Origin: a candidate division Zixibacteria bacterium SM23_81 | GTDB lineage: Bacteria > SM23-81 | Direction of reading: 5' to 3' | DNA: 64,000 nucleotides | NCBI GenBank assembly: GCA_001304015.1 | Contig: LJUY01000006.1 | Span: 22,605-86,604, forward strand | Shown here: positions 29,013-61,946 of the stretch, one piece after another | How the letters are laid out: every line of letters begins with the position of its first letter | Numbering within the stretch: position 1 is the stretch's first letter | Program-made: the position numbers and the translations under genes | Notes under the pieces: generated by a model | Seen by the model: only the letters and a program-made list of their open reading frames with translations | Database searches by the model: none | What the model was told of the DNA's origin: nothing

Positions 29013-29041
29013 TTGACAAGATCAGATTGTAGCAATATATT
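29013..29041 (+). promoter_or_regulatory. Candidate sigma-70 promoter (TTGACA-N17-TATATT)
   Basis: Exact -35 hexamer at 29013-29018 and a near-consensus -10 at 29036-29041 with a 17-nt spacer, about 280 nt upstream of the sulfotransferase start. Confidence 0.3.
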
Positions 29042-30364: not shown

Positions 30365-30778
30365 GGATACCCTGAAGTTGGCAAAAGGGCTTCCAGTCAC
30401 ATTAAGAAAAAGGTAAGAGAAAAAGCCTCTCAAGCACAAACGAATGGGAATGACCGCTTGGGTCAAATCATTGGCAATTCAGCCGGTTCCTGAGTGGTTT
30501 TCCAGATCGCTTTTTGAACCAGTTGGAATCCCCATTTTGACAGCTTAAGCCATTAGAGCAATCCAAGCTGGTGTAAACCGCCACGGCTTTTCCTCGGCAA
30601 AAGACTGGCTACTGCCATCTGATGAACTTCTTCTTCACGACCTTGCATCCTTGACCTCCCACATAAATATAAAAAAGTCACCAGTAAGACTTTTCGAGGA
30701 TATTTTCAAAGAGCCAATTCGTATCGCCGATGTCCTGTTATTTAACAATAAGCTGTTGAAAAGAGGCACATATATATT

Positions 30779-31741: not shown

Positions 31742-32100
31742 TGCCTCGCTTGACATTTGCTGGAGATATTGTAAGAACTTTTTCCCTACGGTATATGTTG
31801 TTCCTGTTGCCGTGGAAAGGCAAGACTTGGGATCTTATACCGGCCGTCAATCATATGGGCACTGGATGGCTGCAGGCCATCTGTCGGGAGTTATATTCCA
31901 GATACTACTGGATCGTTAAAAAGTTTGGAGAGGCTACCGGCATACCAGTCCTTATGAACACGTCTTTCAACCTACGCGGTAAGCTCATCGTAAGCAGTCC
32001 CGCCGGTGCGTGCAATACGTTTTCCAAAAGCGAAATAGACATATTGGTAATGAGCCAATATTTGGTAAATAAGGAGGCTTTTCAACGAATCGCCAACTAA
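31716..32100 (+). pseudogene. Carbamoyltransferase (NodU/CmcH family) C-terminal remnant, frameshifted
   Basis: IPAVNHMGTGWLQ...GIPVLMNTSFNLRG...IVSSPAGACNTF matches the conserved carbamoyltransferase C-terminal domain. The preceding segment (VVPVAVERQ) sits in a different frame, with a shift near 31835. The ~450 N-terminal residues are absent. Confidence 0.55.
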
Positions 32101-35440: not shown

Positions 35441-35830
35441 GGGAGCCTCCTGAATGGGTAGATGGTGATAGAAAACCATAGGAACCCATTCAAGCTTATT
35501 GCAAGAATCAAGCCAGAAAAAAAAGATACCCAGGAATCCTCCTAAGTATCATTTTTTTACTTTATTACCTCGATGTAAGGACGATAATATTTAAGAAACT
35601 CAGTCCAGATCTGGTTAAGTTATAAACAAAATGACCTCCAATGGATTAGATATGATAATCATGGGAAGATCCGCAAGAAAAAACAGTTCTCCTCCAAGAG
35701 GTTAACGCCCTGACGAAAAATTCACCCAATGTTCAATTGCTGAAAGCCTTGAATGTAAATTGCACATTGATAAATTGAGGCCAGAAATGACCATAACTGG
35801 TCAGATACTTTCACGCAAAGCAGCTCACTT

Positions 35831-45500: not shown

Positions 45501-45704
45501 ACTTGTTCTTAAGATGGCGTGCCGTTCCGCAACTCGCTGCCAGGCCCTCTTGAAGGCAGAGACGTTTAGGTCTTCATGGAAAGCACAGATAAACTGCACA
45601 TGATATACGCCGGACTGTCGCGTATTTAGGCTATGGAAGAGCATGCCCTGCTGTACGGGTGAAAGGCGGTATGAATCTTCGATATTCTCTGTTTTCATTC
45701 GCAT
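42498..45704 (-). CDS. Non-ribosomal peptide synthetase, module 1 (starter C-A-T)
   Basis: N-terminal C domain (LSPVQQGMLF, HHALLDGRS). A-domain cores (LTYRELNSQANQLA, YTSGSTGRPKGV, FDLSIFE, NLYGPSE, YKTGDL, GRLDYQVKVRGFRIELGEIE). T domain FFELGGHSL. Overlaps module 2 by 4 nt. Confidence 0.95.
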   Translation of the reverse strand: MRMKTENIEDSYRLSPVQQGMLFHSLNTRQSGVYHVQFICAFHEDLNVSAFKRAWQRVAERHAILRTSFRWEGLKEPLQDVHTHVTLPFEEQDWRDLPTEEQKSRLLSYLQTDRCRSFELTEAPLVRLALFRVGQADYRFIWTLHHALLDGRSAYLLWLEIFAFYEAFSQNQDLSLKHAPPYRDYINWLEEQDLTEAETFWRRTLKGFTAPTPLVVDRVHGDKSVEKGDYKEKGIRLTETMTTALRSLAERHELTLNTLIQGAWVLLLSRYSGEEDVVFGATRACRHSALEGIESMVGILLNTLPMRASLSPEKSLLLLLKELRAQWVALREYEHTPLPRIMEWSDIPAGKPLFESLVVFENFTFHSILQAEGGGWEKREVRFTGQTNYPLVLSGYSEPELLLEIGYDRHYFNDATIARMLGHLQTLLEGIVENPQQRLSELSLLTEAERHQLILDWNDTHREYAEEKCIHQLFEDQVDQTPDAIALVFEDEQLTYRELNSQANQLAHYLQKLGVGPEVLVGICVERSVEMMVGLLGILKAGGAYVPFDPWYPKERLAFMLEDTQAPVLLTQQRLAHRFSKEETSVVCLDADREIIARESARTPVTDVTANNMAYVLYTSGSTGRPKGVGIEHHSTVVMLNWAREVFAPEDFASVLLSTSICFDLSIFEQFVPLSWGGKVILVKNALHLRTLPAANDVTLINTVPSTIAELVRADSIPASVHTVNLAGEPLQKHLVQQIYQQNTIQQVFNLYGPSEDTTYSTFALVRGEATGSPPIGRPIANTQVYLQDRHLQSVPIGVLGELYLGGAGLARGYLNYPEMTAEQFIPNPFSAEPGARLYKTGDLARYLPDGNIEFIGRLDYQVKVRGFRIELGEIETVLVGHPAVRETVVMAREDQPGDKRLVAYVVPQQQQTPTINELSGFLRKKLPDYMVPSSFMMLQALPLTPNKKVDRQRLPAPERIRPELEKDFVAPRNPVEEILARIWAQVLGVERVGVHDNFFELGGHSLLTMQVVSHIRDTFKVELPLSSVFEAPTIAGFTQANGDILKAQSATEIDTITSREDFEKLEL

Positions 45705-45824
45705 TTTCTCTCTCGGCTTGACCGATTTTGATGATCAGATGGAAACCAGATAGGGCGGCCAGCTGCTTTTTGTATACAGGAATTAAACCGCTCTCTTTTG
45801 TCGGTAACTCACAATTTTACCAAA

Positions 45825-46457
45825 CTATGCCTCTACAAACTCAAGATGCCCTTGACCTGTTAGGGTATTGAGATCAATGTCAGCGACACACTGGACTTTA
45901 ACGTAATTAAGCGTCAGACCCCCCACAAGATGAGCATTCCCAGTTTGGTTATCGAAATCGGCCTGGTTTAAATCGGTCGTACCATGATCAAGTCTAACTC
46001 CCAGCTCTGTCCCCCCCCTTGTATCCGTGAACTTAACAAGGATATATCCTCGATCGATAGCTTCTCTAAAGAGTTTAACAGTCTTTTCAGGTCGCAGAGC
46101 TATTTCCACTGGATGATCGCCTTCTGAAAGAAATTGTCCCAAATCGTCCCTCGGGTCTTTCTTTTTATTTTTCTCTGCCTCATTTACTTTCAAGGCTTTT
46201 TCCTTATCTCCTTCCTCTCTCTTTTGGGCCATCTCCTCCATTTTCTTTCTGAGACTGAGTGGCCGCATATCCGTCCAGACTTTCTTTATGAAAGCCAGGC
46301 ACTCATCTTTAGACCCACTTTGACCAACCTTTTTCCAGCCAAGAGGCGGATTTCCTTTATGCTCAAGCCAAATAGAATACTGCTCTTCTTGATTTACGAC
46401 GACTTCGTATGTCGTCGTGTCCTCCTGGTTGTCTCTATTCATCTCGCCATCCTCCAA
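45825..46457 (-). CDS. MbtH-like protein fused to a C-terminal domain of unknown function
   Basis: The N-terminal ~70 aa (YEVVVNQEEQYSIWLEHKGNPPLGWKKVG...CLAFIKKVWTDMRP) match the MbtH signature. A K/E-rich linker and a ~100-aa beta-rich C-terminal domain follow. Confidence 0.75.
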   Translation of the reverse strand: MEDGEMNRDNQEDTTTYEVVVNQEEQYSIWLEHKGNPPLGWKKVGQSGSKDECLAFIKKVWTDMRPLSLRKKMEEMAQKREEGDKEKALKVNEAEKNKKKDPRDDLGQFLSEGDHPVEIALRPEKTVKLFREAIDRGYILVKFTDTRGGTELGVRLDHGTTDLNQADFDNQTGNAHLVGGLTLNYVKVQCVADIDLNTLTGQGHLEFVEA

Positions 46458-46754
46458 ATGGAGCCGTCTATCGAATTCTTTGACAGCCTTTCCAGTGAGA
46501 TGACACCCTACCTGATCTCTTTAGCTGCATTTCTCCAACGAAAGATAAAAAGGAAAGAGCGTCACCACTTTATCGACCTTGATTACGAAGTGCGCTCAGC
46601 GACCAGCTAGCGTGAAAGAGTTCAGTGACCCTGACAGCAGAAAAAGGACTACATTTCCGCAGGCTCTGGCAATTTATAGCAGATCAGGTAAGGCCCTTCC
46701 AATTTTCCACTGACTTCCTGGTGCGCCCATCTTCCCCGGATTCCCCTGAGCACT

Positions 46755-48116
46755 TTACACAGCCACACGCCCATCTACATCCTGGGGCACGCGAACGTCC
46801 ATCATGCTCAGAATGGTGGGCATAAGATCCATAATCTCCACATCTTCCTGTACAGAGCGCCGACCCAGCACCAACAAAAAAGCATCATCGTAAGTGTGCA
46901 TACCCACTAAGGCCGTTTTTTCAAACAACAAAGCTTTCTTAACATCCGCCTTGAGATCAAATCCATCAGTGGGAATGGCGATGAGATCTGCCGCCTGGAA
47001 CAGACTATCCCCGTGATAAATCTCCTCCCTCCTCGCTACCTTCCGGATGACCCTCTCCCCTGTATCTGGGTTCCGAAGCTCTAGGAGACCCTCGGCTACC
47101 TCCCCTCTGACTCGATCATAATCAGAGGGGTCTACACTTCCCTTGGGTTCCCGCCCCTTCATGTTGATGTAGATGCGCCCGGGAAGGAGCGTGTAGGCTT
47201 TGGAGCTGGGATGAATATCCTGGAGGCTCTCAGGTGGATTCTCTCCGAATCTCAGCCATCCCTTCTCCAATAAATATCGACTGAGATTCACCTCTTTCTT
47301 AACGGTGCAAAAGCCGTGGTCGGACAACAGGATAAAGGTAACATCATCGTTCATCCTATTGTGGAACATACCTAGAATCTCGTCGATCTGCTCATAGTAA
47401 TTCAGGAAGGGCGTTTTGTATTCGGGATGTTCCTGCTCCATATGCTCCCACATGAAGTGATTAATTCTATCGGTGCCCATAACATGGAGCTGAAAATAAT
47501 CCCAGGACTGGCGGTCCATGAAATAGGACACGGCCTGAATTCTCCTTTCCAAGGTAATGCGCAAGTCCTCCAAGAACTTGTCCAAGGATTCCCGGGCCTG
47601 GGCAGAATCCACGTCGATTCGGTAACCCATCTGTTCCAGCTGTCCAGCGATCTCCCTGGGGAATGTGGCCTTTTTCAGGTTGGTGGCCAAAAAGCCAGCC
47701 ACCAATATTCCGTTTACGGATCTGACTGGATATGTGACCGGAACGTTGATGACCACGACCCTCTTTCCTCGTTCGCTGAGGATCTCCCACAGAGTCTTGC
47801 TGGTCATGTTCAAAGAGGTGGGTATGAACATCTCGTAGGAGCTAGGACGGTGATCCACGAAGCCGAAGATGCCATGCTTTCCCGGATTTTTCCCGGTCAT
47901 GAAGGTGGACCAGGCCACTGAGGAGATGGTGGGTAATACGGATCTCATCCTGGTGAATGAGCCTTCTTCCACCATCTTGGCAAGGTGCGGAAGCCGTCCT
48001 TGGGACATCTGTGCTTCCAGGAAGCTATAAGGGACACCGTCGAGGCTGAGAACGAAAACGCGGCGTTTTTTTGGCCTAGTTCTAAAAAAAGCCATGTCCT
48101 GTGTTCCTCTGCTCAT
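46755..48116 (-). CDS. AlkP-superfamily PF01663 (type I phosphodiesterase / nucleotide pyrophosphatase-like) protein, paralog 1
   Basis: N-terminal metal-site VLSLDG. LPTISSVAW...GKNPGKHGIFGF aligns to the NPP nucleophile region P-S-x-T-F-P-N-H. The start is probably the ATG at 48095 (AGAGGA upstream). Confidence 0.75.
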   Translation of the reverse strand: MSRGTQDMAFFRTRPKKRRVFVLSLDGVPYSFLEAQMSQGRLPHLAKMVEEGSFTRMRSVLPTISSVAWSTFMTGKNPGKHGIFGFVDHRPSSYEMFIPTSLNMTSKTLWEILSERGKRVVVINVPVTYPVRSVNGILVAGFLATNLKKATFPREIAGQLEQMGYRIDVDSAQARESLDKFLEDLRITLERRIQAVSYFMDRQSWDYFQLHVMGTDRINHFMWEHMEQEHPEYKTPFLNYYEQIDEILGMFHNRMNDDVTFILLSDHGFCTVKKEVNLSRYLLEKGWLRFGENPPESLQDIHPSSKAYTLLPGRIYINMKGREPKGSVDPSDYDRVRGEVAEGLLELRNPDTGERVIRKVARREEIYHGDSLFQAADLIAIPTDGFDLKADVKKALLFEKTALVGMHTYDDAFLLVLGRRSVQEDVEIMDLMPTILSMMDVRVPQDVDGRVAV

Positions 48117-48129
48117 TCAATCTGTGGAC

Positions 48130-48765
48130 TTAGAGATACCCGAGATCCTCTAGCCTTCTCTGGATCTTCTCTTCCTCTTCCTGGGAATAAACCTCATCCT
48201 CCTCCAGCGAAGCCATCTGGTCTGCCACCGTTGACAGGGCCGGAACGTAACCCAATTCTTCTAGCTTCCGGATGACCGTATCTCGACATTCCTCTGGGCC
48301 AGTCTTATCGACCTTTAGGAGAACTTCTGGATGAAGCGGCTCTTCATAAGGATCGTCCACCCCAGTGAAGTCCTTAATCTCTCCCGCCCTGGCCTTCTTG
48401 TACATGCCCTTCACATCTCTTTGCTCACAGACCGCCACAGGGGCAGCCACAAAGACTTCCACAAAGTTGGTGGTCTCCCTTCTGGCATTGTCTCTTGCCT
48501 CTCTATATGGAGAGACAAAAGAAACCAGCACAGCTACCCCATTTCGACTTAACAGCTTGGCTACGAAAGTGACTCGCTCGATGTTTTTGTCTCGGTCCTC
48601 TTTGGAAAAACCCAAATCGCGGGTCAGGCTCTGTCTGACGATGTCTCCATCCAGACGCTCGACCCTCAAATTTCTCCTCTTCAACTCTTCGGCCACCAAA
48701 TCGGCCACCGTCGTCTTGCCGGAGCAGGGAAGCCCTGTGAACCACACGGTACATCCTGGTTGCAT
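48130..48765 (-). CDS. cysC: Adenylylsulfate (APS) kinase
   Basis: P-loop GLPCSGKTT, LDGDIVRQSL and a ~40-aa acidic C-terminal tail. Confidence 0.9.
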   Translation of the reverse strand: MQPGCTVWFTGLPCSGKTTVADLVAEELKRRNLRVERLDGDIVRQSLTRDLGFSKEDRDKNIERVTFVAKLLSRNGVAVLVSFVSPYREARDNARRETTNFVEVFVAAPVAVCEQRDVKGMYKKARAGEIKDFTGVDDPYEEPLHPEVLLKVDKTGPEECRDTVIRKLEELGYVPALSTVADQMASLEEDEVYSQEEEEKIQRRLEDLGYL

Positions 48766-48784
48766 TTTAGGATCCTCCTTGAAC

Positions 48785-50170
48785 TTAGATGATAGATTTT
48801 CCCTCCATATCTTCTGGAACTGGTAGATTGAAAATCCGAAGTATCGTCGGGGCGAGATCCATCAAATGCAGATGAGATACCTTGCCCCTGGGAAGTCCTG
48901 AGTTCTTCATAACAAATATGCCGTATTGCGAGTGATTGGCGTCGTCCGGTCCAGTATCGTTCTCAAAGGTGTGGATGTCTCCGAAGCCCACACTGCCCAC
49001 GGAACGCCAAGATAGGTTCCCGAAGTAGATGATCAAATCTGGAGCCACGTTCTTCACCTGAGGATAGATATCCTGAGGCTTGAAGACACGGGTATTGATG
49101 TTCTCACCATTCTCATCCTCGATGGCCTCCAGCTTGGTAATGAGATGGTCGCGGAACTTCTCATAGTCTTGGGGTTCGATAACTCCCTGGGGCTCCCGGT
49201 TCTTTACATTGAGGAACAGCCGGCCATAATAACCCCCGGAGCCCCAGGCTTTGGTGTGAGGCCAGTCTATGTTATCGTGGCTCAGAGGAAAAACCTCCCT
49301 GGGAGGATTTTTCAATCGCAGATACCCTTCCCTCATGAGCCATTCGTTGATGCAAATCCCACCGTCCATACGTTGAGCGCCGTGATCGGAGACGATGAAG
49401 ATCACGGTCCGCTCGTCCACCTTGCTCACTATTCGACCAACCAGGCTGTCAACATACTGGTAATATTCCTTGAGAACACTCTTGTACGGTGAGTTTGGCT
49501 CATACTTTCTATGCTGCTCATCGAAATACTTCCAGAGGCCATGATGAATCCGATCGATGCCCATATCCACGAACATAAAAAAGTCCCATTCCTTGTTTAC
49601 CAGAAGATGGTTCACAACCCGAAACCTGTTCTCGGTCATATCGTAAATCTGCTTGATGAGATCATCCTTGTCCTCTGTCCTGAACTTCTTCACGTCCAAG
49701 ATGTACTCTCCCACCACATCTTCGATCTCCCTCTTCAACTCCTGCGGATAGGTATATTGGCAGTTTGTGTCCGGGGCCAGAAATCCGGATATCATAGAAC
49801 CATTGAGAGGTTTCGGTGGATAGGTTTGAGGAACGCCAACCAGAACGCTTTTTTTGCCTGCTCGGGACAGTATGTCCCAAACTCGATCCTCCTTGACCGC
49901 TTGAGAGGTAGCGAAGTACATCTCATCATAGGAATAGTTCTTCCGATTGCGAAAGCCATAGAAACCCAACACTCCAGGACTTTTGCTAGACACCATAGAG
50001 GTCCAGGCTGGAACGGTAATGGGTGGTATTGTGCTCTCAAGTTCCCCATACACGCTCTGCTCTAGAATTGCTTTGAAATGAGGTAAATCATCAACCCAGC
50101 GGTCAAAGATCAGCTGAGGGGTAGCGCAATCCAGGCCTATGACCAGCACTTTCCTGCCGGTGTGAGGCAA
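48785..50170 (-). CDS. AlkP-superfamily PF01663-like protein, paralog 2
   Basis: VLVIGLDCATP, IPPITVPAWTSM...GFYGF. Same architecture as paralogs 1 and 3. Confidence 0.75.
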   Translation of the reverse strand: MPHTGRKVLVIGLDCATPQLIFDRWVDDLPHFKAILEQSVYGELESTIPPITVPAWTSMVSSKSPGVLGFYGFRNRKNYSYDEMYFATSQAVKEDRVWDILSRAGKKSVLVGVPQTYPPKPLNGSMISGFLAPDTNCQYTYPQELKREIEDVVGEYILDVKKFRTEDKDDLIKQIYDMTENRFRVVNHLLVNKEWDFFMFVDMGIDRIHHGLWKYFDEQHRKYEPNSPYKSVLKEYYQYVDSLVGRIVSKVDERTVIFIVSDHGAQRMDGGICINEWLMREGYLRLKNPPREVFPLSHDNIDWPHTKAWGSGGYYGRLFLNVKNREPQGVIEPQDYEKFRDHLITKLEAIEDENGENINTRVFKPQDIYPQVKNVAPDLIIYFGNLSWRSVGSVGFGDIHTFENDTGPDDANHSQYGIFVMKNSGLPRGKVSHLHLMDLAPTILRIFNLPVPEDMEGKSII

Positions 50171-50457
50171 AAAGCATCTCCTTTCATCAGATAGTTAAAA
50201 GAGTAACTCTCATCCTCTCAGAATTCACAAAACCTTCATTTTGCTCAGAAAACTCTAGCACACGCGACAAGTTACTCTAAAAAGGATTTCTTGCTTCTTA
50301 TTTTCTTAACAAGCTTTCCTCGTTGTAAACCTTTCCCACCGATTCTCCGGTGCGACAAGAAAATCGAACCTCTTGTTTCTTCCCTGTGGCATGAAGGGTC
50401 TTTCTACGAAAACCTCGAGAACTTCCTAATGATCCAGCCAGGAAGTGAATATTCTGG

Positions 50458-51981
50458 TTATGGGCTAAAAGAATCCTGAAAAATCCCTTTGAGGACTTTT
50501 CCATCAGTATCAATGGGAATGCCTATTTTTAACATATGAAGTATAGTTGGAAAGAGATCGACTATTTCCGCTCCAAAGAACTGCTTTCCCTTTTGTATAA
50601 TTTTGCCGTGTGCGATGAAAATACCCTCCAAACTGTGATCTCCAGAAGCCCAACCTGTCAATTCATATAATCTCTTTTTATATGGACTCGTGGCATAGTT
50701 TTCGTAGGTGTGAAAAACCAAATCAGGTGCTAGGTCAGAAAAGGGACCATTGAAATATTCCTCACGGTAAAATACATCCCGAATGACGGCATGGTTGTTT
50801 TGAGGATCGCGGGTGTTCAACAAGGCCTGCTTTATAAAACTCCTTAATTTCTCATACTCTTCCCCCTGGCTTACAATACCCTCTGGCTCTCTGCCCCTTA
50901 AATTTACCTGTATCCCAACTTGCTGATCCCCAGCACAATAAGCCTTAGTGTTTTTCCAGGAAACTTGGCTTTTAGGAGAGAGTATCTTCCTTCGGCCCGA
51001 TAAATTCCTTAGAACTTGGCGTCTAAGCTTGTGTATAAAGGGAATGTCCAGCGCTCGTAAGAAAGCGAGAGTTCTGGCTTTCCCCTTGCGGAACTTAAGC
51101 AGGTGGTGGGTCATCAACCAATCATTGACATCAAACTGCTTATGCGCCGACTGAAAACCGTGATCTGAGATAAGAATCAACACGGTGTCTTCATCCAACC
51201 TGGCTCGGATTTCTCCTATAGCACTGTCCAACATCATGAAAAATTCATCTATCAATGGCATATACTTTTTAGACTCTTCAGCATTGAATTCGGGATGAGT
51301 ACCATCGATATACTTCCACAAGCAATGTTGCACTCTATCTGGTCCGGTAAAAACGACTATACAAAAATCTGGCTGATAGAGGTCGAGAAGAAAAAGTGTC
51401 GCCTCTTTTCTTATTGTGGTCATTTTTTTCACGTCTTCAATGAGATCGCTCACTCTATTTTTGTACCACTTCCAGACTAGATTTATGGGGTAGTCTCCGA
51501 TTTTCTCTTTAAGCTTCTTTCCCAGCTCCTCAGGATAGGTGAATGTGCTATTTGTACTCGGGGTAAGCATGCCCGAGATTAAAAAACCATTCACTGGCTG
51601 CGGTGGGTAAGTGAGGGGCACATTTATCACGCCAACCTTTTTGCTATTGCGACTTAAAATTCTCCATAAAGTCTCACTTTTCATTACTTTCGAATGGACA
51701 ACCCTCTTTCGGTAAAAATCGGAAGAGTCAGGGATTCTAAATCCAAAAATGCTGTGTTTCCCGGGTTTTTTCCCGCTCATGAAGGAGGCCCAAGCTGCCA
51801 TGGAATTTGGCGGAATTACAGATTTTAATTCACCAAAGGTCCCTGTTTTAATGAGCTCTGCCAAATTCGGCATTTTGCCCCTGGATATCATTGGGTCCAA
51901 TATTTTGAATGTGGCTCCATCTAAACCAATAACCATCACTTTGCTCTTCACATGTCCTCCATAGATGACCTTTTTATACAA
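50458..51981 (-). CDS. AlkP-superfamily PF01663-like protein, paralog 3
   Basis: VMVIGLDGATF, IPPNSMAAWASF...GKKPGKHSIFGF. 507 aa. The start is uncertain (ATG at 51981 or 51936). Confidence 0.75.
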   Translation of the reverse strand: MYKKVIYGGHVKSKVMVIGLDGATFKILDPMISRGKMPNLAELIKTGTFGELKSVIPPNSMAAWASFMSGKKPGKHSIFGFRIPDSSDFYRKRVVHSKVMKSETLWRILSRNSKKVGVINVPLTYPPQPVNGFLISGMLTPSTNSTFTYPEELGKKLKEKIGDYPINLVWKWYKNRVSDLIEDVKKMTTIRKEATLFLLDLYQPDFCIVVFTGPDRVQHCLWKYIDGTHPEFNAEESKKYMPLIDEFFMMLDSAIGEIRARLDEDTVLILISDHGFQSAHKQFDVNDWLMTHHLLKFRKGKARTLAFLRALDIPFIHKLRRQVLRNLSGRRKILSPKSQVSWKNTKAYCAGDQQVGIQVNLRGREPEGIVSQGEEYEKLRSFIKQALLNTRDPQNNHAVIRDVFYREEYFNGPFSDLAPDLVFHTYENYATSPYKKRLYELTGWASGDHSLEGIFIAHGKIIQKGKQFFGAEIVDLFPTILHMLKIGIPIDTDGKVLKGIFQDSFSP

Positions 51982-53146
51982 TAGCTCGATAAATATCGAT
52001 AACTCTTTCAGCGTTTCTTTTCCAAGTATGGTGCTTTCTTATATGCTCCATAATCTTAGATCCAAGCTCCTTCCGAAGCTTGGAATCATTAACCAGAATG
52101 AGGATTTTCTCTTTCAAGTCCTCTGCATCACCAGGATTTATCAAAATCCCATTTTTGCCATCCTCTATGACTTCTTGAACGGGTGCTGTACGCGGGGCAA
52201 TCACCGGTTTCCCCATGGCCCCGTACTCAAAAATCTTAATTGGCGAACCATTCCAATTGGAGTTGGGCATCACACAAATATCCATTGCTGCAATATGAGC
52301 GGGCACCGCCTCAAAGGGAATCCCACCGGTGAGCGTAAAATGTTCGCTTACGCCTCTGCCTTTTAAATTCTCTTCAAACTGCCTCCTATCCCTAAAGCGA
52401 CCAACTACAAGAAAATGTAGTTCCTTCCTCTCTCTGATCAAATCCTGGGCCAATCTTATGAGAAGCTCTACGCCATGATGTTTGTGCATACTTCCCACAA
52501 ACCCAATGACTATTTTACCTCGCAGACTATATTTATTCCGAATGTCTTGGAAGGCACTGCTAGAATCAAACAATTCAGTATCTACACCATTTGGCAAGAC
52601 ATGTATCTTCCTTGAAGGAACCCCTCTTTTGACAAGATAATCCCTCATAACCCCAGATATAGTGATTATGGCATTCGTACATTTTTCAACTTTTCTTTGA
52701 ATCAATGAGGCCAAGAATGAAAAGTGAGCTGGACCAAACCGACTTCTTGCCTCTATGGGGGCATTGATTTCCAGAATGTGGGGTATTTTGAGATCTCGCG
52801 CTATTGTTGAACTTGCCCAAAAAAAATAGGAATACCTTTCATAAATAAAGTCGGGGATCTCCCTCTTAAAAAAAGACTTATAAGAGCTTAAGAAATTGTA
52901 GTTATAGTATATTTTGTACCCATCTCTCACCATCGAAGCAATAGATAGGGGTAAAATGTACTTCTGGTTTGAGAAAGACAATTTGGCTTGGCTTTCTCTT
53001 GTGCCTTGCCCAGCAATTATGGGGACGACCATATGTCCAAGTTTACGATATGCCTCTATTAAATTGACTATATGAGATGTCGATCCTGTATAAACAGAAT
53101 TATCTATTCTTAGCCCTGGATTCCCAACAACATAAAGAATCTTCAT
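51974..53146 (-). CDS. Glycosyltransferase family 4 (GT-B, retaining)
   Basis: The C-terminal EYGAMGKPVIAPRTAPVQEVIEDGKNGILI motif is the GT1/GT4 E-x7-E region. Typical ~390-aa length. Confidence 0.8.
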   Translation of the reverse strand: MKILYVVGNPGLRIDNSVYTGSTSHIVNLIEAYRKLGHMVVPIIAGQGTRESQAKLSFSNQKYILPLSIASMVRDGYKIYYNYNFLSSYKSFFKREIPDFIYERYSYFFWASSTIARDLKIPHILEINAPIEARSRFGPAHFSFLASLIQRKVEKCTNAIITISGVMRDYLVKRGVPSRKIHVLPNGVDTELFDSSSAFQDIRNKYSLRGKIVIGFVGSMHKHHGVELLIRLAQDLIRERKELHFLVVGRFRDRRQFEENLKGRGVSEHFTLTGGIPFEAVPAHIAAMDICVMPNSNWNGSPIKIFEYGAMGKPVIAPRTAPVQEVIEDGKNGILINPGDAEDLKEKILILVNDSKLRKELGSKIMEHIRKHHTWKRNAERVIDIYRAIV

Positions 53147-53258
53147 GAGGTATCACTGCGTTTCCACTTATGGTTCAAGGTAACATTTTTAGGCACAGCA
53201 GTTGCTTTGATTCCCCTGAATGCGGTGAGAGAACTTGCTTTTTCGACTTTCTCTGCCT

Positions 53259-54410
53259 CTATTCAACAAAGGGATCATCTGCGCTAGCCAAAACTTCCAC
53301 TATTTCCGGTCTCATAATCTCCGAGGCCACCTCAGCGCCCTCGGTGATGATCCCCCGTATTTTGGTCCCGCTGGGAGTTAGCCACGAGTCTTTCTGGTGG
53401 GGACAGGTCTTAGCTGTGGCCATGTTCTCACAGGCTTGACAGTAAAAAGAGTGCTCGAAGAAGAGAGGTTGAATTCCTAGATCGGGAAAATCGGCGAAAA
53501 TCCTGTGTGCGGCATAGGTATCGTAATAATCGCCAACGCCAGCGTGATCCCGTCCGATGATGTGATGGGTACAGCCGAAGTTCTTTCTGACTATGGCGTG
53601 GAAAATGGCCTCTTTGGGCCCCGCGTAGCGCATCTGCCATGGCAGAATGCTCATCACCACCCTGTTCTGAGGATAGAAGTCGTCGATGAGAGTCTGATAG
53701 GCCTTTAGGATCAGCTCATCGGTAAAGTCGCCGCTTTTTTTTCTCCCGATAACTGGATTGATGAACAAACCGTCACAGATTTCCAAAGCACACTTCTGAA
53801 TATATTCGTGGGCTCGGTGGGGCGGATTTCGCGTCTGAAAGGCTACCACCGTATCCCATCTCCTTTTCCGAAATAGATAGCGAGTCTCCTTGGGAGAGAG
53901 ATTATAGCGCTTATATGGTATCCTGATGTCCTCCAGTAAATCCACAGCACCGCTCAAGAAGACATCGTGAAGGCCGAGGAATTTTTTCACTCCAGGATGT
54001 TTTTCATCGTCGGTTCCGAAAACGCCCCTGGCGATTTTCAATTTGTCAAATCGATATTTCTCCTCTAAATGTAATAGGGCCAGAGGAATTCCGGCCTCAT
54101 CCATAAGGGTGAGGGTTTGTCCTTCCTTCAAGAACCTGGCCTGAGATTCCTCCACGGCCAACAGAATGGGAATCGTCCAGGCCAGCCCTTTGGCCAAACG
54201 CCCCTCCTTGACCACAGATTCCACATCGGCGCTGCCCATGAATCCTTCCAGAGGACTGAAGACACCCCGAGCGAGATTCTGGACCTCAGAGACGGTCTCA
54301 GCAGACACGGTCAACTGAAACATTCCAGGAATCTCAGTCAGGATGTCTGCTCCTTTCTCTGGGCTCAATATTCGATTGACCAGTTTTCCACCATGAGGTT
54401 TAATCAACAA
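53259..54410 (-). CDS. sat: Sulfate adenylyltransferase (ATP sulfurylase, single-chain Sat type)
   Basis: QTRNPPHRAHE and GRDHAG motifs. 383 aa. Confidence 0.9.
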   Translation of the reverse strand: MLIKPHGGKLVNRILSPEKGADILTEIPGMFQLTVSAETVSEVQNLARGVFSPLEGFMGSADVESVVKEGRLAKGLAWTIPILLAVEESQARFLKEGQTLTLMDEAGIPLALLHLEEKYRFDKLKIARGVFGTDDEKHPGVKKFLGLHDVFLSGAVDLLEDIRIPYKRYNLSPKETRYLFRKRRWDTVVAFQTRNPPHRAHEYIQKCALEICDGLFINPVIGRKKSGDFTDELILKAYQTLIDDFYPQNRVVMSILPWQMRYAGPKEAIFHAIVRKNFGCTHHIIGRDHAGVGDYYDTYAAHRIFADFPDLGIQPLFFEHSFYCQACENMATAKTCPHQKDSWLTPSGTKIRGIITEGAEVASEIMRPEIVEVLASADDPFVE

Positions 54411-54497
54411 TATCCCATCTCCCTTCTATGTATGATTTCTAAAAACAGGTATAGGTCGAATCGAGCATATATTCTCCTCTTCAACTATCCCACCCGG

Positions 54498-55529
54498 CTA
54501 TTGGGAGCTTCTTTTGAACACCCCCTCTCCCCAGGTGCCGGCGTAGACGACATGAGGAGTAAAGGGAGCCACCGCCAGGGCTTTGACATCTACTTCGGTG
54601 AGCCCCTCGTTCCACTGCGCCCAGTTCTGGCCTGCATCAGTGCTTCGATAAACTCCATTGTTGGTAGCGGCGTATAAGCAGTCGGTGTTAGAGGGACTCA
54701 TGCCGATCACCCTCACATCCCTGGTTCCTCCAAATCCTTTGACGACATTGGTCCACAGCCCGGCCGCATTGGTACTCTTGTAAACGCCCATGACGTTTGA
54801 ACCGACATATAAAATATTCGGGTCGATGGGATTGATCAGAACCCATTGAATTCTCGCCGAGGGGCCATTTAGGTTAATCCCATTGTTGCCGACGGACCAA
54901 CTATCGCCGCCATCTTCACTTTTGTAAAAGTTATCGAATTTCCCTCCAGCGTAGACAATCTGGGAATTCTGGGGATGAACAGCCAAAGAGGCACGATTGT
55001 AATAGAAGATATAAAACAAAGTGTCGGCGCCATTATAACTCCTGTTGATACCACCATCACACCCAATGAAGAGGGTGTCCGAATGAGTAGGGTCGGTGGC
55101 TATGCTGTAAATAGTGGGATCCACGAGACCCACCTTTTTCCCCTCCCAACTCTCGCCTCCATCCTCGCTTTTAAAAACTCCAGACCCGTAAGTGCCCACA
55201 TACATTGTTTCCGGATGCAGCGCATCGAAAGCGATGGCGGATATCTGGGAATAAGTCCACCCACTGTCCAATCGCGTCCAAGTTTGGGCACCGTCGGTGC
55301 TTTTATAAAGACCACCCCAAGTACCACTGAAAATAATGTCGGAATTGCTGGGATGAACAGCTAAAAATCGCACAAAAAGATTCTCCAGACCAGAATTAAC
55401 CGCCGACCACTGATTTGAGTCAGAATCAGTGGGCGATTTTTTACCGCAGGATATGGCCAGGATACAAAAAAAGCACCCTAGGAGAAAAAACTTGGCGGCG
55501 ATGGACCTGTCTGTCGAATATAGGTTCAT
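54498..55529 (-). CDS. BNR/Asp-box repeat beta-propeller lipoprotein (Ycf48/sortilin-like)
   Basis: Lipoprotein signal (ILAISCG). Repeated S-x-D-x-G-x-T-W boxes (STDGAQTW, SEDGGESW, SEDGGDSW, STDAGQNW). Confidence 0.7.
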   Translation of the reverse strand: MNLYSTDRSIAAKFFLLGCFFCILAISCGKKSPTDSDSNQWSAVNSGLENLFVRFLAVHPSNSDIIFSGTWGGLYKSTDGAQTWTRLDSGWTYSQISAIAFDALHPETMYVGTYGSGVFKSEDGGESWEGKKVGLVDPTIYSIATDPTHSDTLFIGCDGGINRSYNGADTLFYIFYYNRASLAVHPQNSQIVYAGGKFDNFYKSEDGGDSWSVGNNGINLNGPSARIQWVLINPIDPNILYVGSNVMGVYKSTNAAGLWTNVVKGFGGTRDVRVIGMSPSNTDCLYAATNNGVYRSTDAGQNWAQWNEGLTEVDVKALAVAPFTPHVVYAGTWGEGVFKRSSQ

Positions 55530-55559
55530 GACTCAGTTCTCCTTTGAAAACAGGAGTTC

Positions 55560-57041
55560 CTAATCCCCCTGGGTTGATGTCATATCATATAATCCACCGT
55601 AAAGGTTCGTGAAGCTGGTCTCTATCACCGTGGGGAAAGTTCTCTTCATATAGTCTTTCAACTTTCCCTCCGGATCCATCAGCCATGGCCTGCCCAGGAC
55701 CAACCACGCCCGCTGGTGACCTTGAACGCGCGCCGCGATCATCTTCTCATGGAAGCTAGGTGACCAAAAAGCTGTGTGGACGGTGAGTGGACCCTGGTAG
55801 TAGTATGTGAACGGCTTCAGGGGTGCGGCCAAGATTACATCTCCATCTTCAGAATGTGCGCTTATATATTGCGCAGCCCACCGATAGCGCGCTTTGGCGT
55901 GTCTATCTTGGAAGTAATGGCCGTGGACAGAATATAAAGTGACAACGACGACGACTCCCATGAGCCCCCACCGGATGATCCCCCTTCGTGGGGCCAGAAG
56001 GCCTCGGGTCAGGATGAGTCCATAGGCTGGCAAGGCCACTGAGGCATAACGTACATTATAGGAGATCTGTGGCCACACCAGAGATACCAGACACCCGCCC
56101 ACGATGGGGGTTATCAGATAAAGCAGAATGAAAACCAGCCGCTCCCGATCCCGCCACAGAGATCGCAGACCCAGAGCAAAGATGGCTGCGAATAAAAGGG
56201 CTACTGGCAGAATCTGACTTAGGTAAGGTCGAAGGGTGCTCAGGGAGGCCGACCAGTGCAGCTCCGCTACAGAAGGGCCATAGCTAAATCCCAGGCTAAA
56301 TGCAAAAAAAGTATAGGGAACTGAGAAAACTTGAAGAGGATTTCCGCCAGCTCCTTGGGTCAAGAAGACCACATACCGCCCACCCCCGAGGAGAAGATAA
56401 ACGATGGGCAGGACCATAATTGCTACAATTCCCAGGGAATAGCCAAATCGACGTATGACAGGGCGGTACGTCTTCAGGAATATAAAGAAGAATGCCACTT
56501 GGCACAATAGGACGAAGATGGCATAATAATGTGTGTATATGGCCAATCCCATAGTTACAGCCCACCATACGCCTGGGCGACCCCTCTGCTCTTGAAGGAA
56601 CTTGACGAAATATAGCGCCGATGCTGCGCTCAGCAAGATGAGCAGACTGTACATCCTGGCATCCTGGGAATACCAGATGTGAAATGGGGAGATGGCCAAT
56701 AAAAAAGCGCACACAAGACCGTGTTTGGTATCCCAAAGGCTTCTCCCCAGCAGATAGGCAATCCCTAGGGTGGCTATCCCGAAAAGAGCTGGTAGCAATC
56801 TGATCATCACATCGCTGCGACCCAAGTAAAGCCAAAAATGAAGCAGGATGTGATACAGAACAGGCGTTTGGCAAAAGCGGATGGCTACTACCCCCAGGTC
56901 CCTGGCCGAGAGGCAGACACTATAAACTTCGTCATAAGAGAAACTCTGGCCACCCAGCCTCACGAGCCTGAGAACGGTGCCCAGCACCAAGATGAGCAAC
57001 AGATAGATGCTCACACGCTTTTTGGGGATGGCTTCATTCAT
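55560..57041 (-). CDS. GT-C fold membrane glycosyltransferase (ArnT/PMT-like, GT39/GT83, COG1807)
   Basis: About 12 predicted TM helices. First periplasmic loop has SFSYDEVY (the DE motif of PMT/ArnT-type transferases). Hydrophilic C-terminal domain. Confidence 0.75.
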   Translation of the reverse strand: MNEAIPKKRVSIYLLLILVLGTVLRLVRLGGQSFSYDEVYSVCLSARDLGVVAIRFCQTPVLYHILLHFWLYLGRSDVMIRLLPALFGIATLGIAYLLGRSLWDTKHGLVCAFLLAISPFHIWYSQDARMYSLLILLSAASALYFVKFLQEQRGRPGVWWAVTMGLAIYTHYYAIFVLLCQVAFFFIFLKTYRPVIRRFGYSLGIVAIMVLPIVYLLLGGGRYVVFLTQGAGGNPLQVFSVPYTFFAFSLGFSYGPSVAELHWSASLSTLRPYLSQILPVALLFAAIFALGLRSLWRDRERLVFILLYLITPIVGGCLVSLVWPQISYNVRYASVALPAYGLILTRGLLAPRRGIIRWGLMGVVVVVTLYSVHGHYFQDRHAKARYRWAAQYISAHSEDGDVILAAPLKPFTYYYQGPLTVHTAFWSPSFHEKMIAARVQGHQRAWLVLGRPWLMDPEGKLKDYMKRTFPTVIETSFTNLYGGLYDMTSTQGD

Positions 57042-58921: not shown

Positions 58922-60823
58922 TTAAAAGTAATACCAGATGGTCCTGTAATCATCCAAGTTCTCACCCATCTCCTCAAGGCGTCTCAGATAGCTCAGGATG
59001 GGGACATCTACGTGGATGAAGCTATCCACTGGAGAGATGTTCCGCTCCCAGGGAAAAAATTCGTAGATTCGCCGACCATCTGGGGTCAACATGATCACGT
59101 CGTGATCCTGCCAAGCGATAAGGTAGCTTTTTCCCAACCGGGGAACGTTGAAGACGGCGGCATCAGAGCGGACCATTCCCGAGAACAGCCGAACTTCCTC
59201 CCTTTTTTCCTGAAGCAGCCGAGCAATGGGAGCCCGGTAGGACTCCGTCTCCTCTTTTCCTTTGGCGACAAAGGTGTAGTAAGGTTCGATGCCTATAACC
59301 CGCAATTGTCGTCGAAGAGCTGCGCTTTCAAACCTCCTACTGTTGTATGTGGTAAAGACCAGCTGATTGTACACCGGGATGCCCCTGCGACGAATTCTGG
59401 CCACAGCCATGACCATCTCTGGAGTCACCTCGTAGAGGTGCTCCACGTGGGTAACTACGACGATCTCCCTTTTAGCTGGCACGTGGTACTTGCCCAGCAG
59501 GCTCACCAGAGAGGCTGTGAACCTCTGAGGGATGGTAACCAGAAGCCGCGTTCCTAGCCGAATCCGCTCTACATGGTCAATCTCGCTGAGGTTTCTCAAA
59601 AGAGCGTCGAGCTTATTGTCGCTCATCACCAGGGGATCTCCACCGGTGACCAGCACCTCTCTAATGGCCGGATGGTTCCTGATCCAGGTGAGCGCCGCCC
59701 TTATCGCCTTTTGGGAAGCCAAGGCCCGAGGGCCCAGCACCTGATGAATCTCCCAATTTCTCTGGCAGTAAACGCAGATCTGCGGACAAGAGTTATAAGG
59801 CTTAAAAGCCACAATCTGCGGATAGCGTCTGGTGATCAAATCCATGGGAGAGGTGTCATGCTCGCCCATATAGTCCGCGGAGAGTTCTCGATCCTTTTTA
59901 TGCTGGATCATCCAACTTACATAGCTTTCCGGGGGAATAACCTGAGCCCTGATGGCGCGATCGTTTCGGTGGCTGTCAGTCCTGTCTAGCAGAGATAAGT
60001 AAAATGGCGTAATGCCAAAAGGGAGGCCGTTGGCTCGGGCACGTGCAATCTGCCGGCCCTCTTCCTCGGTCAGTTCCACCAGGCAGTTCAGGGTTCGCTC
60101 ATCTCGAATGACCTGTTGTAGATGCCAATGCCAATCATCCCAATCCTTCCTCCGGCTACTAAAATAGCGCAGGATCCGTTGTCTGTTTCGCTGGCGTCTC
60201 CTAACTACCTTGGGGTTCAGACCCGATGGATAGCGTGCCATGAACCTGTCCATAGAACGGTACATGCCATCTAGAAGTCGGGACCTCGCCTGAGCGGCTC
60301 TCCTCCCTCTCATGTCCAAGTAAGTCGGACGCCTCATATGGTCGTAGATGCCGGATTGGCCACTTATTCCCCGGAAAAGGTGGATCAGATCCTCCACGAA
60401 ATCCTCGGTCACCGACTGCAAAACCTCCACATCATCACCCCTAATTAGGTGATACAGATAATAGAGAGAACTCACACCGGTGACCTTTTCATTCCGTTTG
60501 GCCAGAATATTCCTGAACACGGCCAAGCACTCCCGTATGTTCGCTCGCTCCAGGTACTGGGTCTCTTTGAATCCCATCTCCAAAGCTCTCTGCTGGCTGT
60601 CCAGGAATTGATAGAGGCGACGGCGGGCTTCCTCGAGACTCCTGCTCCGGGATAGGATAGTGCAGATTTGCGGAGACGCATTCTTGAGCCGTTGTAGCAA
60701 GGACTTCTCCATCTGCATTGGTTCAGAAGAAGCTTGACCCACTTTGCTCTTGGTCGAAACCCCCGTTTCGGTCACGGTTTGTCCTCCGTTAGTTTCTGGG
60801 GCAATCGGAGACCTCGGGAACAA
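58922..60823 (-). CDS. KamA-family radical SAM aminomutase with ~215-aa Arg-rich N-terminal extension
   Basis: CPQICVYCQR (C-x3-C-x2-C), a KamA-like region (DWDDWHWHLQQ, ITPFYLSLLDRTD) and downstream GGDPL. Several internal Met residues make the exact start uncertain. The ORF overlaps the upstream gene by 35 nt. Confidence 0.8.
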   Translation of the reverse strand: MFPRSPIAPETNGGQTVTETGVSTKSKVGQASSEPMQMEKSLLQRLKNASPQICTILSRSRSLEEARRRLYQFLDSQQRALEMGFKETQYLERANIRECLAVFRNILAKRNEKVTGVSSLYYLYHLIRGDDVEVLQSVTEDFVEDLIHLFRGISGQSGIYDHMRRPTYLDMRGRRAAQARSRLLDGMYRSMDRFMARYPSGLNPKVVRRRQRNRQRILRYFSSRRKDWDDWHWHLQQVIRDERTLNCLVELTEEEGRQIARARANGLPFGITPFYLSLLDRTDSHRNDRAIRAQVIPPESYVSWMIQHKKDRELSADYMGEHDTSPMDLITRRYPQIVAFKPYNSCPQICVYCQRNWEIHQVLGPRALASQKAIRAALTWIRNHPAIREVLVTGGDPLVMSDNKLDALLRNLSEIDHVERIRLGTRLLVTIPQRFTASLVSLLGKYHVPAKREIVVVTHVEHLYEVTPEMVMAVARIRRRGIPVYNQLVFTTYNSRRFESAALRRQLRVIGIEPYYTFVAKGKEETESYRAPIARLLQEKREEVRLFSGMVRSDAAVFNVPRLGKSYLIAWQDHDVIMLTPDGRRIYEFFPWERNISPVDSFIHVDVPILSYLRRLEEMGENLDDYRTIWYYF

Positions 60824-61946
60824 GGTTCTCTCCCCTGGAGACAGACTCGATGGAGGGTGCCAGCAGTCCCTTTTTCCGGGACATCATCCGAACCAAACGG
60901 GTCAGACCGGTTCCATACGTGACTAGTCCGCTCACTAACAGCAAGGACCAGTAACATATCAAACGACTGGTGAGAATGGTGACACCTCTGAATGCCCTGG
61001 CTAACCCGATGAGGGAGAACAGGGAGAACTGAACGGCATCGATCTGTCCCACAGCGCCTGGCGTGATGGGAATAGTGGCCACTAAGTTGACCGTGAAAGA
61101 AACGAAAGCCACCCAGGGCCATGGCAGGGGATAGTCCAGGGCCATAAGCACCAGATACGTGACCAAAGCGTCACAGAACCATATGATCAGCGTGAGGAAA
61201 AACGCCAGGAGTATCCGCCCCCGGTTTCTGGCGATGAGTCGCACATTGTCCATCAACCGAAATATGAAAAAGATAAACCTTTGATACCTTGCCGAGGCAA
61301 ATACACCCCGTAGCCTTTTCTCCGTTTTGGGCACGAAATACAGGAACATCAACAACAGGAGAAAACAGGAGAAGGTCACTTGATACAGGCTCAAGATCCA
61401 CCTGGGTAGCCCAAAGCTGAGGATGAAAAAGCTGAACACGAGGGAACAACTCAGGATAACAAACCCATCCAGGCCACGCTCCACGAAAATGCTGCCCAAT
61501 CCGACTCGAAGGGAGATCTTCCGATCGCTTCTCAGCAGATATGCCCGGGCGACATCGCCAGCCCTGGCGGGCACAACAGCGCTGATGAACCAGCCGACCA
61601 ACAAATAGGAAAAAAGCGTGACGGAGGATAGCTTTTGATCCAAAGCCCCCAAGAGAAGCTTCCAACGCAGCGTGCGCACCGCAAAGGAAGAGTAATATAA
61701 TGCAAAAGCAGCCACAATGAACCGTGGGTCCAGAGTCCGAAACTTCTCCCAGGACGCCTGGAAACCAGACAGCTTTAAGATGGCCAAAAAGGTCACCACT
61801 CCCAAGGCGACCAGAGTGGCTGCCCGTCGCATGCTGACCTTCTTGGAAACTGGAAAAGCCCCTGTTGACATCAGCTCAATTCCCACGATCGTACTCGCTG
61901 CCCCTCTCCACGGGATTGAAGGTCCCCCTGGTGATGAGACAGACAA
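60789..61946 (-). CDS. Polytopic membrane protein, flippase-like (LPG-synthase TM-domain / UPF0104-like)
   Basis: About 8 hydrophobic helices with an RWKLLL motif region. This is the family that commonly partners with GT2 enzymes. The likely start is the ATG at 61871 or 61832. Confidence 0.6.
   Translation of the reverse strand: MSVSSPGGPSIPWRGAASTIVGIELMSTGAFPVSKKVSMRRAATLVALGVVTFLAILKLSGFQASWEKFRTLDPRFIVAAFALYYSSFAVRTLRWKLLLGALDQKLSSVTLFSYLLVGWFISAVVPARAGDVARAYLLRSDRKISLRVGLGSIFVERGLDGFVILSCSLVFSFFILSFGLPRWILSLYQVTFSCFLLLLMFLYFVPKTEKRLRGVFASARYQRFIFFIFRLMDNVRLIARNRGRILLAFFLTLIIWFCDALVTYLVLMALDYPLPWPWVAFVSFTVNLVATIPITPGAVGQIDAVQFSLFSLIGLARAFRGVTILTSRLICYWSLLLVSGLVTYGTGLTRLVRMMSRKKGLLAPSIESVSRGENLVPEVSDCPRN

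Follow-up and report, generated by a model that had tools for sequence, protein, structure and literature searches.

3′-Phosphoadenosine 5′-phosphosulfate (PAPS) is the universal sulfate donor, and its textbook bacterial pathway consists of Sat (or CysDN) and CysC, plus a phosphatase for 3′-phosphoadenosine 5′-phosphate (pAp). The alkaline phosphatase (AlkP) superfamily includes the nucleotide pyrophosphatases/phosphodiesterases (NPPs), which serve extracellular nucleotide hydrolysis, the phosphonoacetate hydrolase PhnA, which is a cytoplasmic bacterial enzyme, the secreted phosphate-scavenging monoesterases PafA and PhoK of the NPP clade, and EptA/MCR-1 and LtaS, which form a covalent phospho-headgroup intermediate on a Thr nucleophile. 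Two further AlkP-superfamily proteins, Agl30 and Agl31, have their genes in a glycosylation cluster of Halobacterium salinarum; one of them is soluble and cytosolic, and genetic evidence indicates that sulfate is added to glycan sugars by this pair (PMC11980604). In this study, we analyzed a 64,000-nucleotide stretch (the window) of a candidate division Zixibacteria bacterium SM23_81 (GCA_001304015.1, contig LJUY01000006.1, positions 22,605 to 86,604), in which three AlkP-superfamily paralogs, AlkP-A, AlkP-B, and AlkP-C (hereafter A, B, and C), are encoded together with ATP sulfurylase (Sat) and the kinase for adenosine 5′-phosphosulfate (APS), CysC.

We found that B defines a widespread family genetically tied to PAPS synthesis. 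It is a third family with Sat/CysC-level conservation, and it is wired to Sat and CysC in three forms, namely operon position, gene fusion, and a common peptide tail, in hundreds of mostly uncultured species from more than 15 phyla.

Organization of the module

The module consists of six closely spaced minus-strand genes running from position 54410 down to 46755, with the transcription order sat, GT4, C, B, cysC, and A.

53259..54410, minus strand: sat, ATP sulfurylase, the first gene of the module (PF01747, E 1.2e-93; PF14306, E 1.6e-47)
51974..53146, minus strand: GT4-family glycosyltransferase (PF13692, PF00534, PF13439)
50458..51981, minus strand: AlkP-C, PF01663 (507-aa open reading frame, ORF; E 2.5e-39)
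48785..50170, minus strand: AlkP-B, PF01663 (461 aa; E 3.4e-49)
48130..48765, minus strand: cysC, APS kinase (PF01583, E 1e-62; TIGR00455, 227 bits vs. a cutoff of 139)
46755..48116, minus strand: AlkP-A, PF01663 (453-aa ORF; E 1.6e-47)

A sequence-only reading of the window, made by a model without database searches, had placed three PF01663 paralogs around cysC, beside GT4 and sat, and this was borne out by Pfam. The PF01663 bit scores of A, B, and C were 163, 169, and 136, respectively (cutoff, 23); their PF00884 matches fell below the cutoff, and PF01663 was otherwise the only family detected. The sat product contains PUA_2 and ATP-sulfurylase domains (NF003166, 526 bits vs. a cutoff of 387), and the top NCBIfam match of the GT4 protein was the PEP-CTERM/XrtA-system glycosyltransferase stp3, under the cutoff of that model. 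A was 100% identical to a protein of candidate division Zixibacteria bacterium SM23_81. Because the database copies of A and C are 446 and 497 aa long, their true starts are likely M8 at 48095 and position 51951, respectively. Promoter and terminator scans of 45600–55700 yielded no more sites than shuffled sequence, and nothing notable in the 288-bp gap between C and B.

Three ancient orthogroups

The pairwise identity among A, B, and C was 28–33%. The B orthogroup is 55–65% identical across more than 15 phyla, including Chloroflexota, Verrucomicrobiota, Acidobacteriota, Thermodesulfobacteriota, Planctomycetota (Brocadiae), Nitrospinota, Nitrospirota, Poribacteria, Latescibacterota, Zixibacteria, Marinimicrobia, Methylomirabilota, and Actinomycetota (Gaiellaceae), and its conservation equals that of Sat and CysC. 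The A orthogroup is 51–56% identical across phyla, and C is the least conserved, with 38–48% identity to its homologues, archaeal sequences included. Of 599 places in species genomes that matched the search pattern, 543 were confirmed to hold B relatives, and a HMMER search returned 14,589 cluster representatives at E ≤1e-3 and 3,672 at E ≤1e-30. Judged from the sequences, A, B, and C constitute three ancient orthogroups with differing pocket residues. Recent tandem duplication was rejected because the paralogs are only 28–33% identical compared with 51–65% for orthologues across phyla, and the idea of serially duplicated copies was abandoned accordingly.

No NCBIfam model or equivalog was found for A, B, or C, and the source names of these proteins are generic (e.g., "alkaline phosphatase family protein" and "phosphodiesterase"). 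A full-text literature search found no paper describing these enzymes or tying them to PAPS. Within the literature and curated models searched, the family, the fusions, and the common tail detailed below are thus undescribed.

Linkage of B to sat and cysC

The genomic context of B was analyzed in 80 loci from species-representative genomes, with genes within 1.5 kb taken as adjacent. By this measure, B had cysC as a neighbour in 41 loci and sat in 30, and 50 loci had at least one of the two. Of the 36 loci whose flanks extend 3 kb or more on each side, 25 had cysC or sat near B. The linkage seen in the window is therefore real and conserved across phyla. The order B–cysC–A recurs in Syntrophobacterales, Zixibacteria, Schekmanbacteria, and other lineages, and A nearly always comes after cysC. 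Loci with neither sat nor cysC nearby were mostly verrucomicrobial operons with the order GT2–B–GHMP kinase–C–acetyltransferase–GT4, and some relatives of these operons carry a sat–cysC fusion directly upstream of B. Minimal operons devoid of glycan genes also occur: B–DUF2061–cysC–A in a Syntrophobacterales genome, B–cysC in Anaerolineae, an isolated sat–B–PHP operon in a deltaproteobacterium, and sat–B–cysC operons.

The commonest Pfam families among 150 neighbour proteins were GT2, GT4, GHMP kinase, hexapeptide acetyltransferase, PHP, SIS, and DegT. In both bacteria and archaea, C-type genes have GT2/GT4, acetyltransferase, GHMP-kinase, and flippase-like genes around them. PHP-domain proteins adjoin B in at least 7 loci, with orders including sat–B–PHP and sat–B–PHP–A, and their top NCBIfam match was the 3′,5′-nucleoside bisphosphate phosphatase model (187–221 bits, under its cutoff).

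Other neighbours were noted beside B. HddA-like GHMP kinases, GmhA-like SIS isomerases, and a GT9 heptosyltransferase recur in Verrucomicrobia, Ktedonobacteria, and one other lineage, which hints at an acceptor pathway involving heptose or a related sugar phosphate; the ktedonobacterial loci also contain a divergently oriented myo-inositol-1-phosphate synthase gene.

L044, 7858–12458: neighbours of this group
L066, 13462–15157: neighbours of this group
L039, 13467–14621: neighbours of this group

Sulfatase-like PF00884 proteins also adjoin B-type genes repeatedly. N-terminal membrane segments are present in some of them and the LGYL tail described below in one, and they recall the sulfatase-like sulfotransferases Agl30/Agl31 of Halobacterium.

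L017, 4339–6258: PF00884 neighbour
L021, 8712–9983: PF00884 neighbour
L069, 8576–9982: PF00884 neighbour
L084, 10941–13010: PF00884 neighbour
L088, 5602–6876: PF00884 neighbour
L089, 3146–4444: PF00884 neighbour

Gene fusions

B and its divergent relatives were found fused to Sat, CysC, and other enzymes as follows.

L087: Sat::B, 878 aa, full-length and in frame
P0062 and P0366: Sat::B
P0370: CysC::B with the tail
P0408: B::GT2
L089, 8001–10175: NTP-transferase::AlkP (divergent B-like subgroup)
L088, 7459–11756: AlkP::pyruvate kinase::Sat (divergent subgroup)
P0435: AlkP::pyruvate kinase (divergent subgroup)

In L087, the Sat::B gene is followed by genes for tailed CysC, A, GT4, GT2, a deacetylase, and PMT_2, an architecture near-identical to that of the window. 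The fusion partner in L089 is a sugar/phospho-headgroup nucleotidylyltransferase, and this locus already has LicD as transferase. An apparent fusion in P0402 was set aside, as it looks like a frameshifted gene call.

With regard to their surroundings, the L089 cluster holds phosphoenolpyruvate mutase, LicD, and CTP-transferase genes and looks like one for phosphonate decoration of a glycan. The L088 fusion gene is followed by an overlapping PHP gene and lies in a Wzx/glycosyltransferase cluster.

The LGYL tail

CysC of the window has a C-terminal extension of about 37 aa, which ends in a tail.

48133..48192, minus strand: LGYL tail, the last 20 codons of cysC, VYSQEEEEKIQRRLEDLGYL

This tail repeats the last helix of APS kinase itself (RKLEELGYV), placed after an acidic linker, and its consensus is approximately [YF][ST]xEEExx[IV]xx[RK]LxxLGY[LIV] ("EEExxIxxRLxxLGYL"). 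It was present on 31 of 40 B-linked CysC proteins, 79 of 120 C-type AlkPs, and 9 of 120 B-type AlkPs, and on no A-type protein. It was also found on AlkP::pyruvate kinase fusions and on a DUF2061 protein, a small ORF, a sulfatase-like membrane protein, and one other protein of these loci (examples besides the window are in L001, L017, L084, P0272, P0370, and P0435). When the window was translated in six frames, cysC was the sole ORF ending in the motif, and AlkP-C of the window is untailed. Among 4,307 six-frame ORFs from all loci, 62 end in the motif, and 58 of these 62 are CysC, B, or C. The tailed B sequences derived from the loci comprise four proteins (five ORFs, two from the same Brocadiaceae contig), all from loci without adjacent cysC. 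In a naturally tailed B (P0074), the tail was predicted to form a helix (predicted local distance difference test, pLDDT, about 81–85) after a low-confidence linker. These results suggest that the LGYL tail is probably a docking peptide. B is present in every locus, which is partly owing to how the loci were collected.

Predicted catalytic site, fold, and location

The sequence-only reading had taken all three paralogs to be catalytically competent on the basis of the motifs LDG, LDC, and LDG and PTIS, PPIT, and PPNS, which we found in A, B, and C, respectively. Profile-to-PDB alignment placed S65 of A, T52 of B, and S60 of C (codons 47922–47924, 50015–50017, and 51802–51804, respectively) on the nucleophile T64 of PhnA. 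The T64 column is marked independently by the T64A mutant entry 3t02 and aligns with T256 of ENPP1. These matches to PhnA and ENPP1 needed a mixed A/B/C profile; PDB searches with B alone or a B-only profile found solely a 30-residue C-terminal motif in common with cofactor-independent phosphoglycerate mutase. Among about 120 orthologues of each paralog, the seven catalytic positions (D14, T/S52, D206, H210, D262, H263, and H413 in B numbering) were 98–100% conserved; those other than T52 are the metal ligands of B. B sequences invariably use Thr as the nucleophile and A sequences Ser; C sequences have either residue. The predicted competence of A, B, and C thus withstood alignment.

The pockets of the paralogs differ. 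Residues R74, N75, R76, R164, K168, K222, and R389 are invariant in B, the basic ones among them being specific to it, and A has acidic residues (D75, E271, and D389 in B numbering) at sites that are basic or neutral in B. In NPPs, the Asn of the HGIxxN motif contacts the phosphoryl group, and an aromatic residue after the nucleophile stacks on the base. The Asn column is Phe in 93–100% of the A, B, and C sequences, and Val, Ser, or Met follows the nucleophile, so that the NPP-type aromatic is absent.

The AlphaFold model of B (pLDDT 96; predicted template modelling score, pTM, 0.94) has the NPP-type core fold. The closest solved structures were ENPP6, ENPP4, Xac NPP, and ENPP7, with a ranking figure of 29, followed by PhnA (26.6), PafA and PhoK (24), sulfatases (about 22), MCR-1 and EptA (about 17), and LtaS (15). 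No signal peptide or transmembrane segment was found by prediction in A, B, or C, and their maximum 19-residue hydropathy was 1.1–1.4 compared with 2.3–2.4 for membrane controls in the window. These results indicate that A, B, and C are, by prediction, cytoplasmic NPP/PhnA-like enzymes of the AlkP superfamily with intact two-metal sites. In Pfam searches, A, B, and C matched neither the canonical PAPS sulfotransferase families (PF00685/PF13469), nor known pyrophosphatase folds (families I, II, and III and membrane-bound), nor pAp phosphatase folds (IMPase, DHH, and PHP).

When compared with the described systems, A, B, and C have in common with the NPPs (Xac NPP, ENPP4, ENPP6, ENPP7, and ENPP1) the PF01663 family, the two-metal ligand set, and an aligned Thr/Ser nucleophile; however, they are only 12–16% identical to them (template modelling score about 0.55), are predicted to be cytoplasmic rather than secreted, have invariant Phe in place of Asn, and lack the aromatic residue. 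B further adds the invariant Arg/Lys residues, and its genomic role is tied to PAPS synthesis, unlike that of the NPPs. PhnA was the top sequence-profile match in the PDB (E 1e-11) and is of similar size, but its model TIGR02335 gave only 27–34 bits against a cutoff of 408, and phosphonate-catabolism genes are absent from the window. PafA and PhoK differ from A, B, and C in being secreted. EptA/MCR-1 and LtaS, the relatives invoked in the sequence-only reading, belong to the same superfamily but are PF00884 proteins that act on the outer face with N-terminal membrane domains. The analogy is weak for cytoplasmic proteins with an NPP/PhnA-like fold and PF00884 scores under the cutoff.

Proposed role of B in PAPS formation

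We consider it likely that B is a dedicated partner of PAPS synthesis. Its Sat/CysC-level conservation, its occurrence in glycan-free operons, and its fusions to Sat and CysC make it look like part of the core of the PAPS module, not like a glycan-specific decorator. More tentatively, we propose a full model in which B partners the PAPS machinery with pyrophosphate as its substrate, and A and C act on a glycoconjugate. In this model, B would be the hub and catalytic partner of a Sat–B–CysC sulfate-activation complex, to which tail-bearing proteins would dock via B, and would cleave a terminal phosphoryl group through a phospho-Thr intermediate. The substrate would most likely be the pyrophosphate released by ATP sulfurylase. 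Its removal by B would pull the very unfavourable APS-forming step, which CysC and, in some lineages, the fused pyruvate kinase would push, and the PAPS produced would then serve sulfotransferases.

Several features point to this assignment. B is fused to two nucleotidylyltransferases, which have pyrophosphate as a common by-product, and to an ATP-regenerating kinase, and pyrophosphate removal would be the simplest single function to account for these partners. The B-specific invariant Arg/Lys residues would suit a polyanionic substrate with a terminal phosphoryl group. The PHP proteins and canonical sulfotransferases encoded beside B suggest that the roles of pAp phosphatase and sulfotransferase are at least sometimes filled by other genes. 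In stramenopiles and haptophytes, ATP sulfurylase is fused to an inorganic pyrophosphatase, with the same rationale of pulling the reaction (PMC2275785). This enzyme and the metazoan bifunctional PAPS synthase parallel the Sat::B, CysC::B, and AlkP::pyruvate kinase::Sat fusions, although the eukaryotic fused pyrophosphatase is a family-I enzyme, to which the fold of B, a proposed pyrophosphatase, is unrelated. No family-I pyrophosphatase motif was found in any locus searched. If B does remove pyrophosphate, it would represent a new pyrophosphatase fold and a natural counterpart of the multi-enzyme PAPS mix used by chemists.

The sequence-only reading had proposed serial phospho- or sulfo-group decoration or remodelling of a glycoconjugate by all three copies. 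Glycosyltransferase and lipid-linked-sugar genes do flank the module in the window and in many other genomes, which agrees with such a role; B, however, also occurs in glycan-free operons and is fused to Sat and CysC. A and C are the better candidates for glycoconjugate enzymes, because their pockets differ from that of B and C is associated with glycosyltransferases. They would act on the glycoconjugate made by the GT4, GT2, and PMT_2 gene products, by transfer of a sulfo or phospho group or by dephosphorylation.

A number of observations weigh against this model. We know of no AlkP-superfamily enzyme dedicated to pyrophosphate hydrolysis, and a small pyrophosphatase of family I would be a simpler solution. 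B is found near cysC (41 loci) more often than near sat (30 loci), with cysC alone in Anaerolineae, and CysC releases no pyrophosphate. In most Verrucomicrobia, the B operon contains neither sat nor a visible nucleotidylyltransferase. A PAPS consumer would explain the CysC::B and B::GT2 fusions more readily than a pyrophosphatase would, and the sat–B–PHP operons with their putative pAp phosphatases point the same way. In the 856-aa Sat::B protein P0366, the SDHG motif is changed to SAYG, with loss of two metal ligands, and most B-specific residues are kept; this hints at a non-catalytic role in that lineage, where the B domain may have lost catalysis and act as a scaffold or regulator instead. 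The receptor of the tail is something we only infer to be B or the Sat–B complex. The report on Agl30/Agl31 also points towards consumption of PAPS (PMC11980604).

Alternative explanations

The close rival is that A, B, and C are AlkP-fold sulfotransferases dependent on PAPS (or APS), which we regard as somewhat less probable than the full model. The sulfuryl group would pass from the phosphosulfate anhydride to the Thr/Ser nucleophile, with the leaving phosphate stabilised by one metal, and then on to a sugar or glycoconjugate made by the neighbouring glycosyltransferases. In a broader form, the three proteins would be head-group transferases with nucleotide-activated donors, which moves the idea of the sequence-only reading into the cytoplasm. 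The linkage of B is tightest to cysC, whose product makes PAPS, and glycosyltransferase genes are often neighbours; the CysC::B and B::GT2 fusions also speak for this rival. The PHP-type putative pAp phosphatases in the same operons suggest that pAp is produced there. Canonical sulfotransferases were found by motif search in just 2 of the 80 loci, both confirmed by Pfam, and were absent from the 25 commonest Pfam families among the 150 neighbours of B. In these two loci (L071 and L049, with the orders B–sulfotransferase and B–cysC–A–sulfotransferase), however, the PF00685 gene lies directly downstream and is translationally coupled to B or A, which argues for a separate enzyme in this role.

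Chemistry also speaks against this rival, since Thr/Ser bimetallo sites of the AlkP superfamily are established to be tuned for phosphoryl rather than sulfuryl transfer. The characterised sulfate-handling members of the superfamily use formylglycine. Unlike glycan sulfotransferases, B is 55–65% identical across phyla and occurs in operons without acceptor-building genes, and the Sat::B fusion, which skips CysC, and the NTP-transferase::AlkP fusion beside LicD would fit a helper enzyme better. Genetic precedent for a sulfotransferase of this superfamily is now provided by Agl30/Agl31, which Halobacterium requires for N-glycan sulfation and which suffice for it in a heterologous host (PMC11980604). 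The sulfatase-like PF00884 proteins adjoining B, one of them tailed, are in line with that precedent. By description, however, Agl30/Agl31 resemble S1 sulfatases of the PF00884 type and are thereby set apart from the PF01663 proteins A, B, and C. The most specific version, which is slightly less probable but has an appreciable chance of being right, describes A, B, and C as a bacterial class of PAPS-dependent sulfotransferases that form a covalent sulfo-Thr/Ser intermediate in a complex with Sat and CysC joined by fusion or LGYL tail, in which B as the hub would receive sulfate and hand it on. If A, B, and C transfer sulfate, they would represent a new sulfotransferase class, and this might account for the sulfated glycoconjugates of such organisms as anammox bacteria, Chloroflexi, and Verrucomicrobia, in which no canonical sulfotransferase is evident.

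It is improbable that B is instead a phosphatase for pAp or another bisphosphate, i.e., a CysQ analogue that would remove the 3′-phosphate added by CysC after the sulfate is used, relieving product inhibition and recycling AMP. In favour of this, B typically has a kinase as its neighbour (in most phyla CysC; in Verrucomicrobia and Ktedonobacteria an HddA-like GHMP sugar kinase), its basic pocket residues would suit a bisphosphate, and the NTP-transferase::AlkP fusion would resemble the consecutive GmhB and HddC steps. This rival was downgraded because the PHP candidates in at least 7 B loci would make B redundant for the role, and it leaves the Sat fusion and the docking tails unexplained. The last rival, that these are ordinary NPP genes for nucleotide or phosphate scavenging whose position beside sat and cysC has no functional meaning, matches the PF01663 name in Pfam and the NPP family as top structural match, but we consider it effectively refuted by adjacency to single-copy sat/cysC in 50 of 80 loci from many phyla and by several independent gene fusions, in addition to the tail peptide specific to these loci, the missing NPP Asn and post-nucleophile aromatic, and the lack of any predicted secretion signal or transmembrane segment, in agreement with the sequence-only reading, which had argued against nucleotide scavenging.

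Gene cluster surrounding the module

The module sits within a co-directional cluster of about 28 kb, from position 64000 down to 35831. Upstream of sat, the cluster encodes, in order, a 4,6-dehydratase, an ATP-grasp enzyme, a flippase-like domain protein, a KamA-family radical SAM enzyme, a DegT aminotransferase, a polyprenyl-phosphate-sugar-type GT2, a PMT_2/ArnT-like transferase, and a lipoprotein. Downstream of AlkP-A, it encodes, in order, an MbtH-like protein, two nonribosomal peptide synthetase (NRPS) modules, a phosphopantetheinyl transferase, two hydrolases, and a polysaccharide deacetylase.

The gene directly downstream of AlkP-A (45825–46457, minus strand) encodes an MbtH-like domain (PF03621, E 2e-17) and a C-terminal region with a weak match to core-binding-factor beta (PF02312, E 9.5e-8), an uncommon combination. 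The two NRPS modules that follow have the C-A-T architecture, one with a TubC docking domain, and the two hydrolases beyond the phosphopantetheinyl transferase are of the alpha/beta type. At 58922–63237 on the minus strand, the KamA-family radical SAM aminomutase (633 aa in total) has a long N-terminal extension and is adjoined by the flippase-like PF03706 domain protein and the ATP-grasp enzyme; this combination suggests that the cluster also serves to attach a beta-amino acid to a lipid or glycan.

A canonical PF13469/PF00685 sulfotransferase is encoded at 29324–30364 on the plus strand, about 17 kb from the module and opposite to it. It lies in a low-GC stretch (about 28000–32000; local GC 0.40–0.45 vs. 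about 0.50 for the module), next to genes for a methyltransferase and a GDSL-type hydrolase, and may either use PAPS supplied by the module or belong to a separate island. At 33515–35479 on the minus strand, an alpha-L-arabinofuranosidase-like protein with FlgD-Ig and Por_Secre_tail (type IX secretion) domains is encoded, and this fits an organism from the neighbourhood of the Fibrobacterota–Chlorobiota–Bacteroidota (FCB) group.

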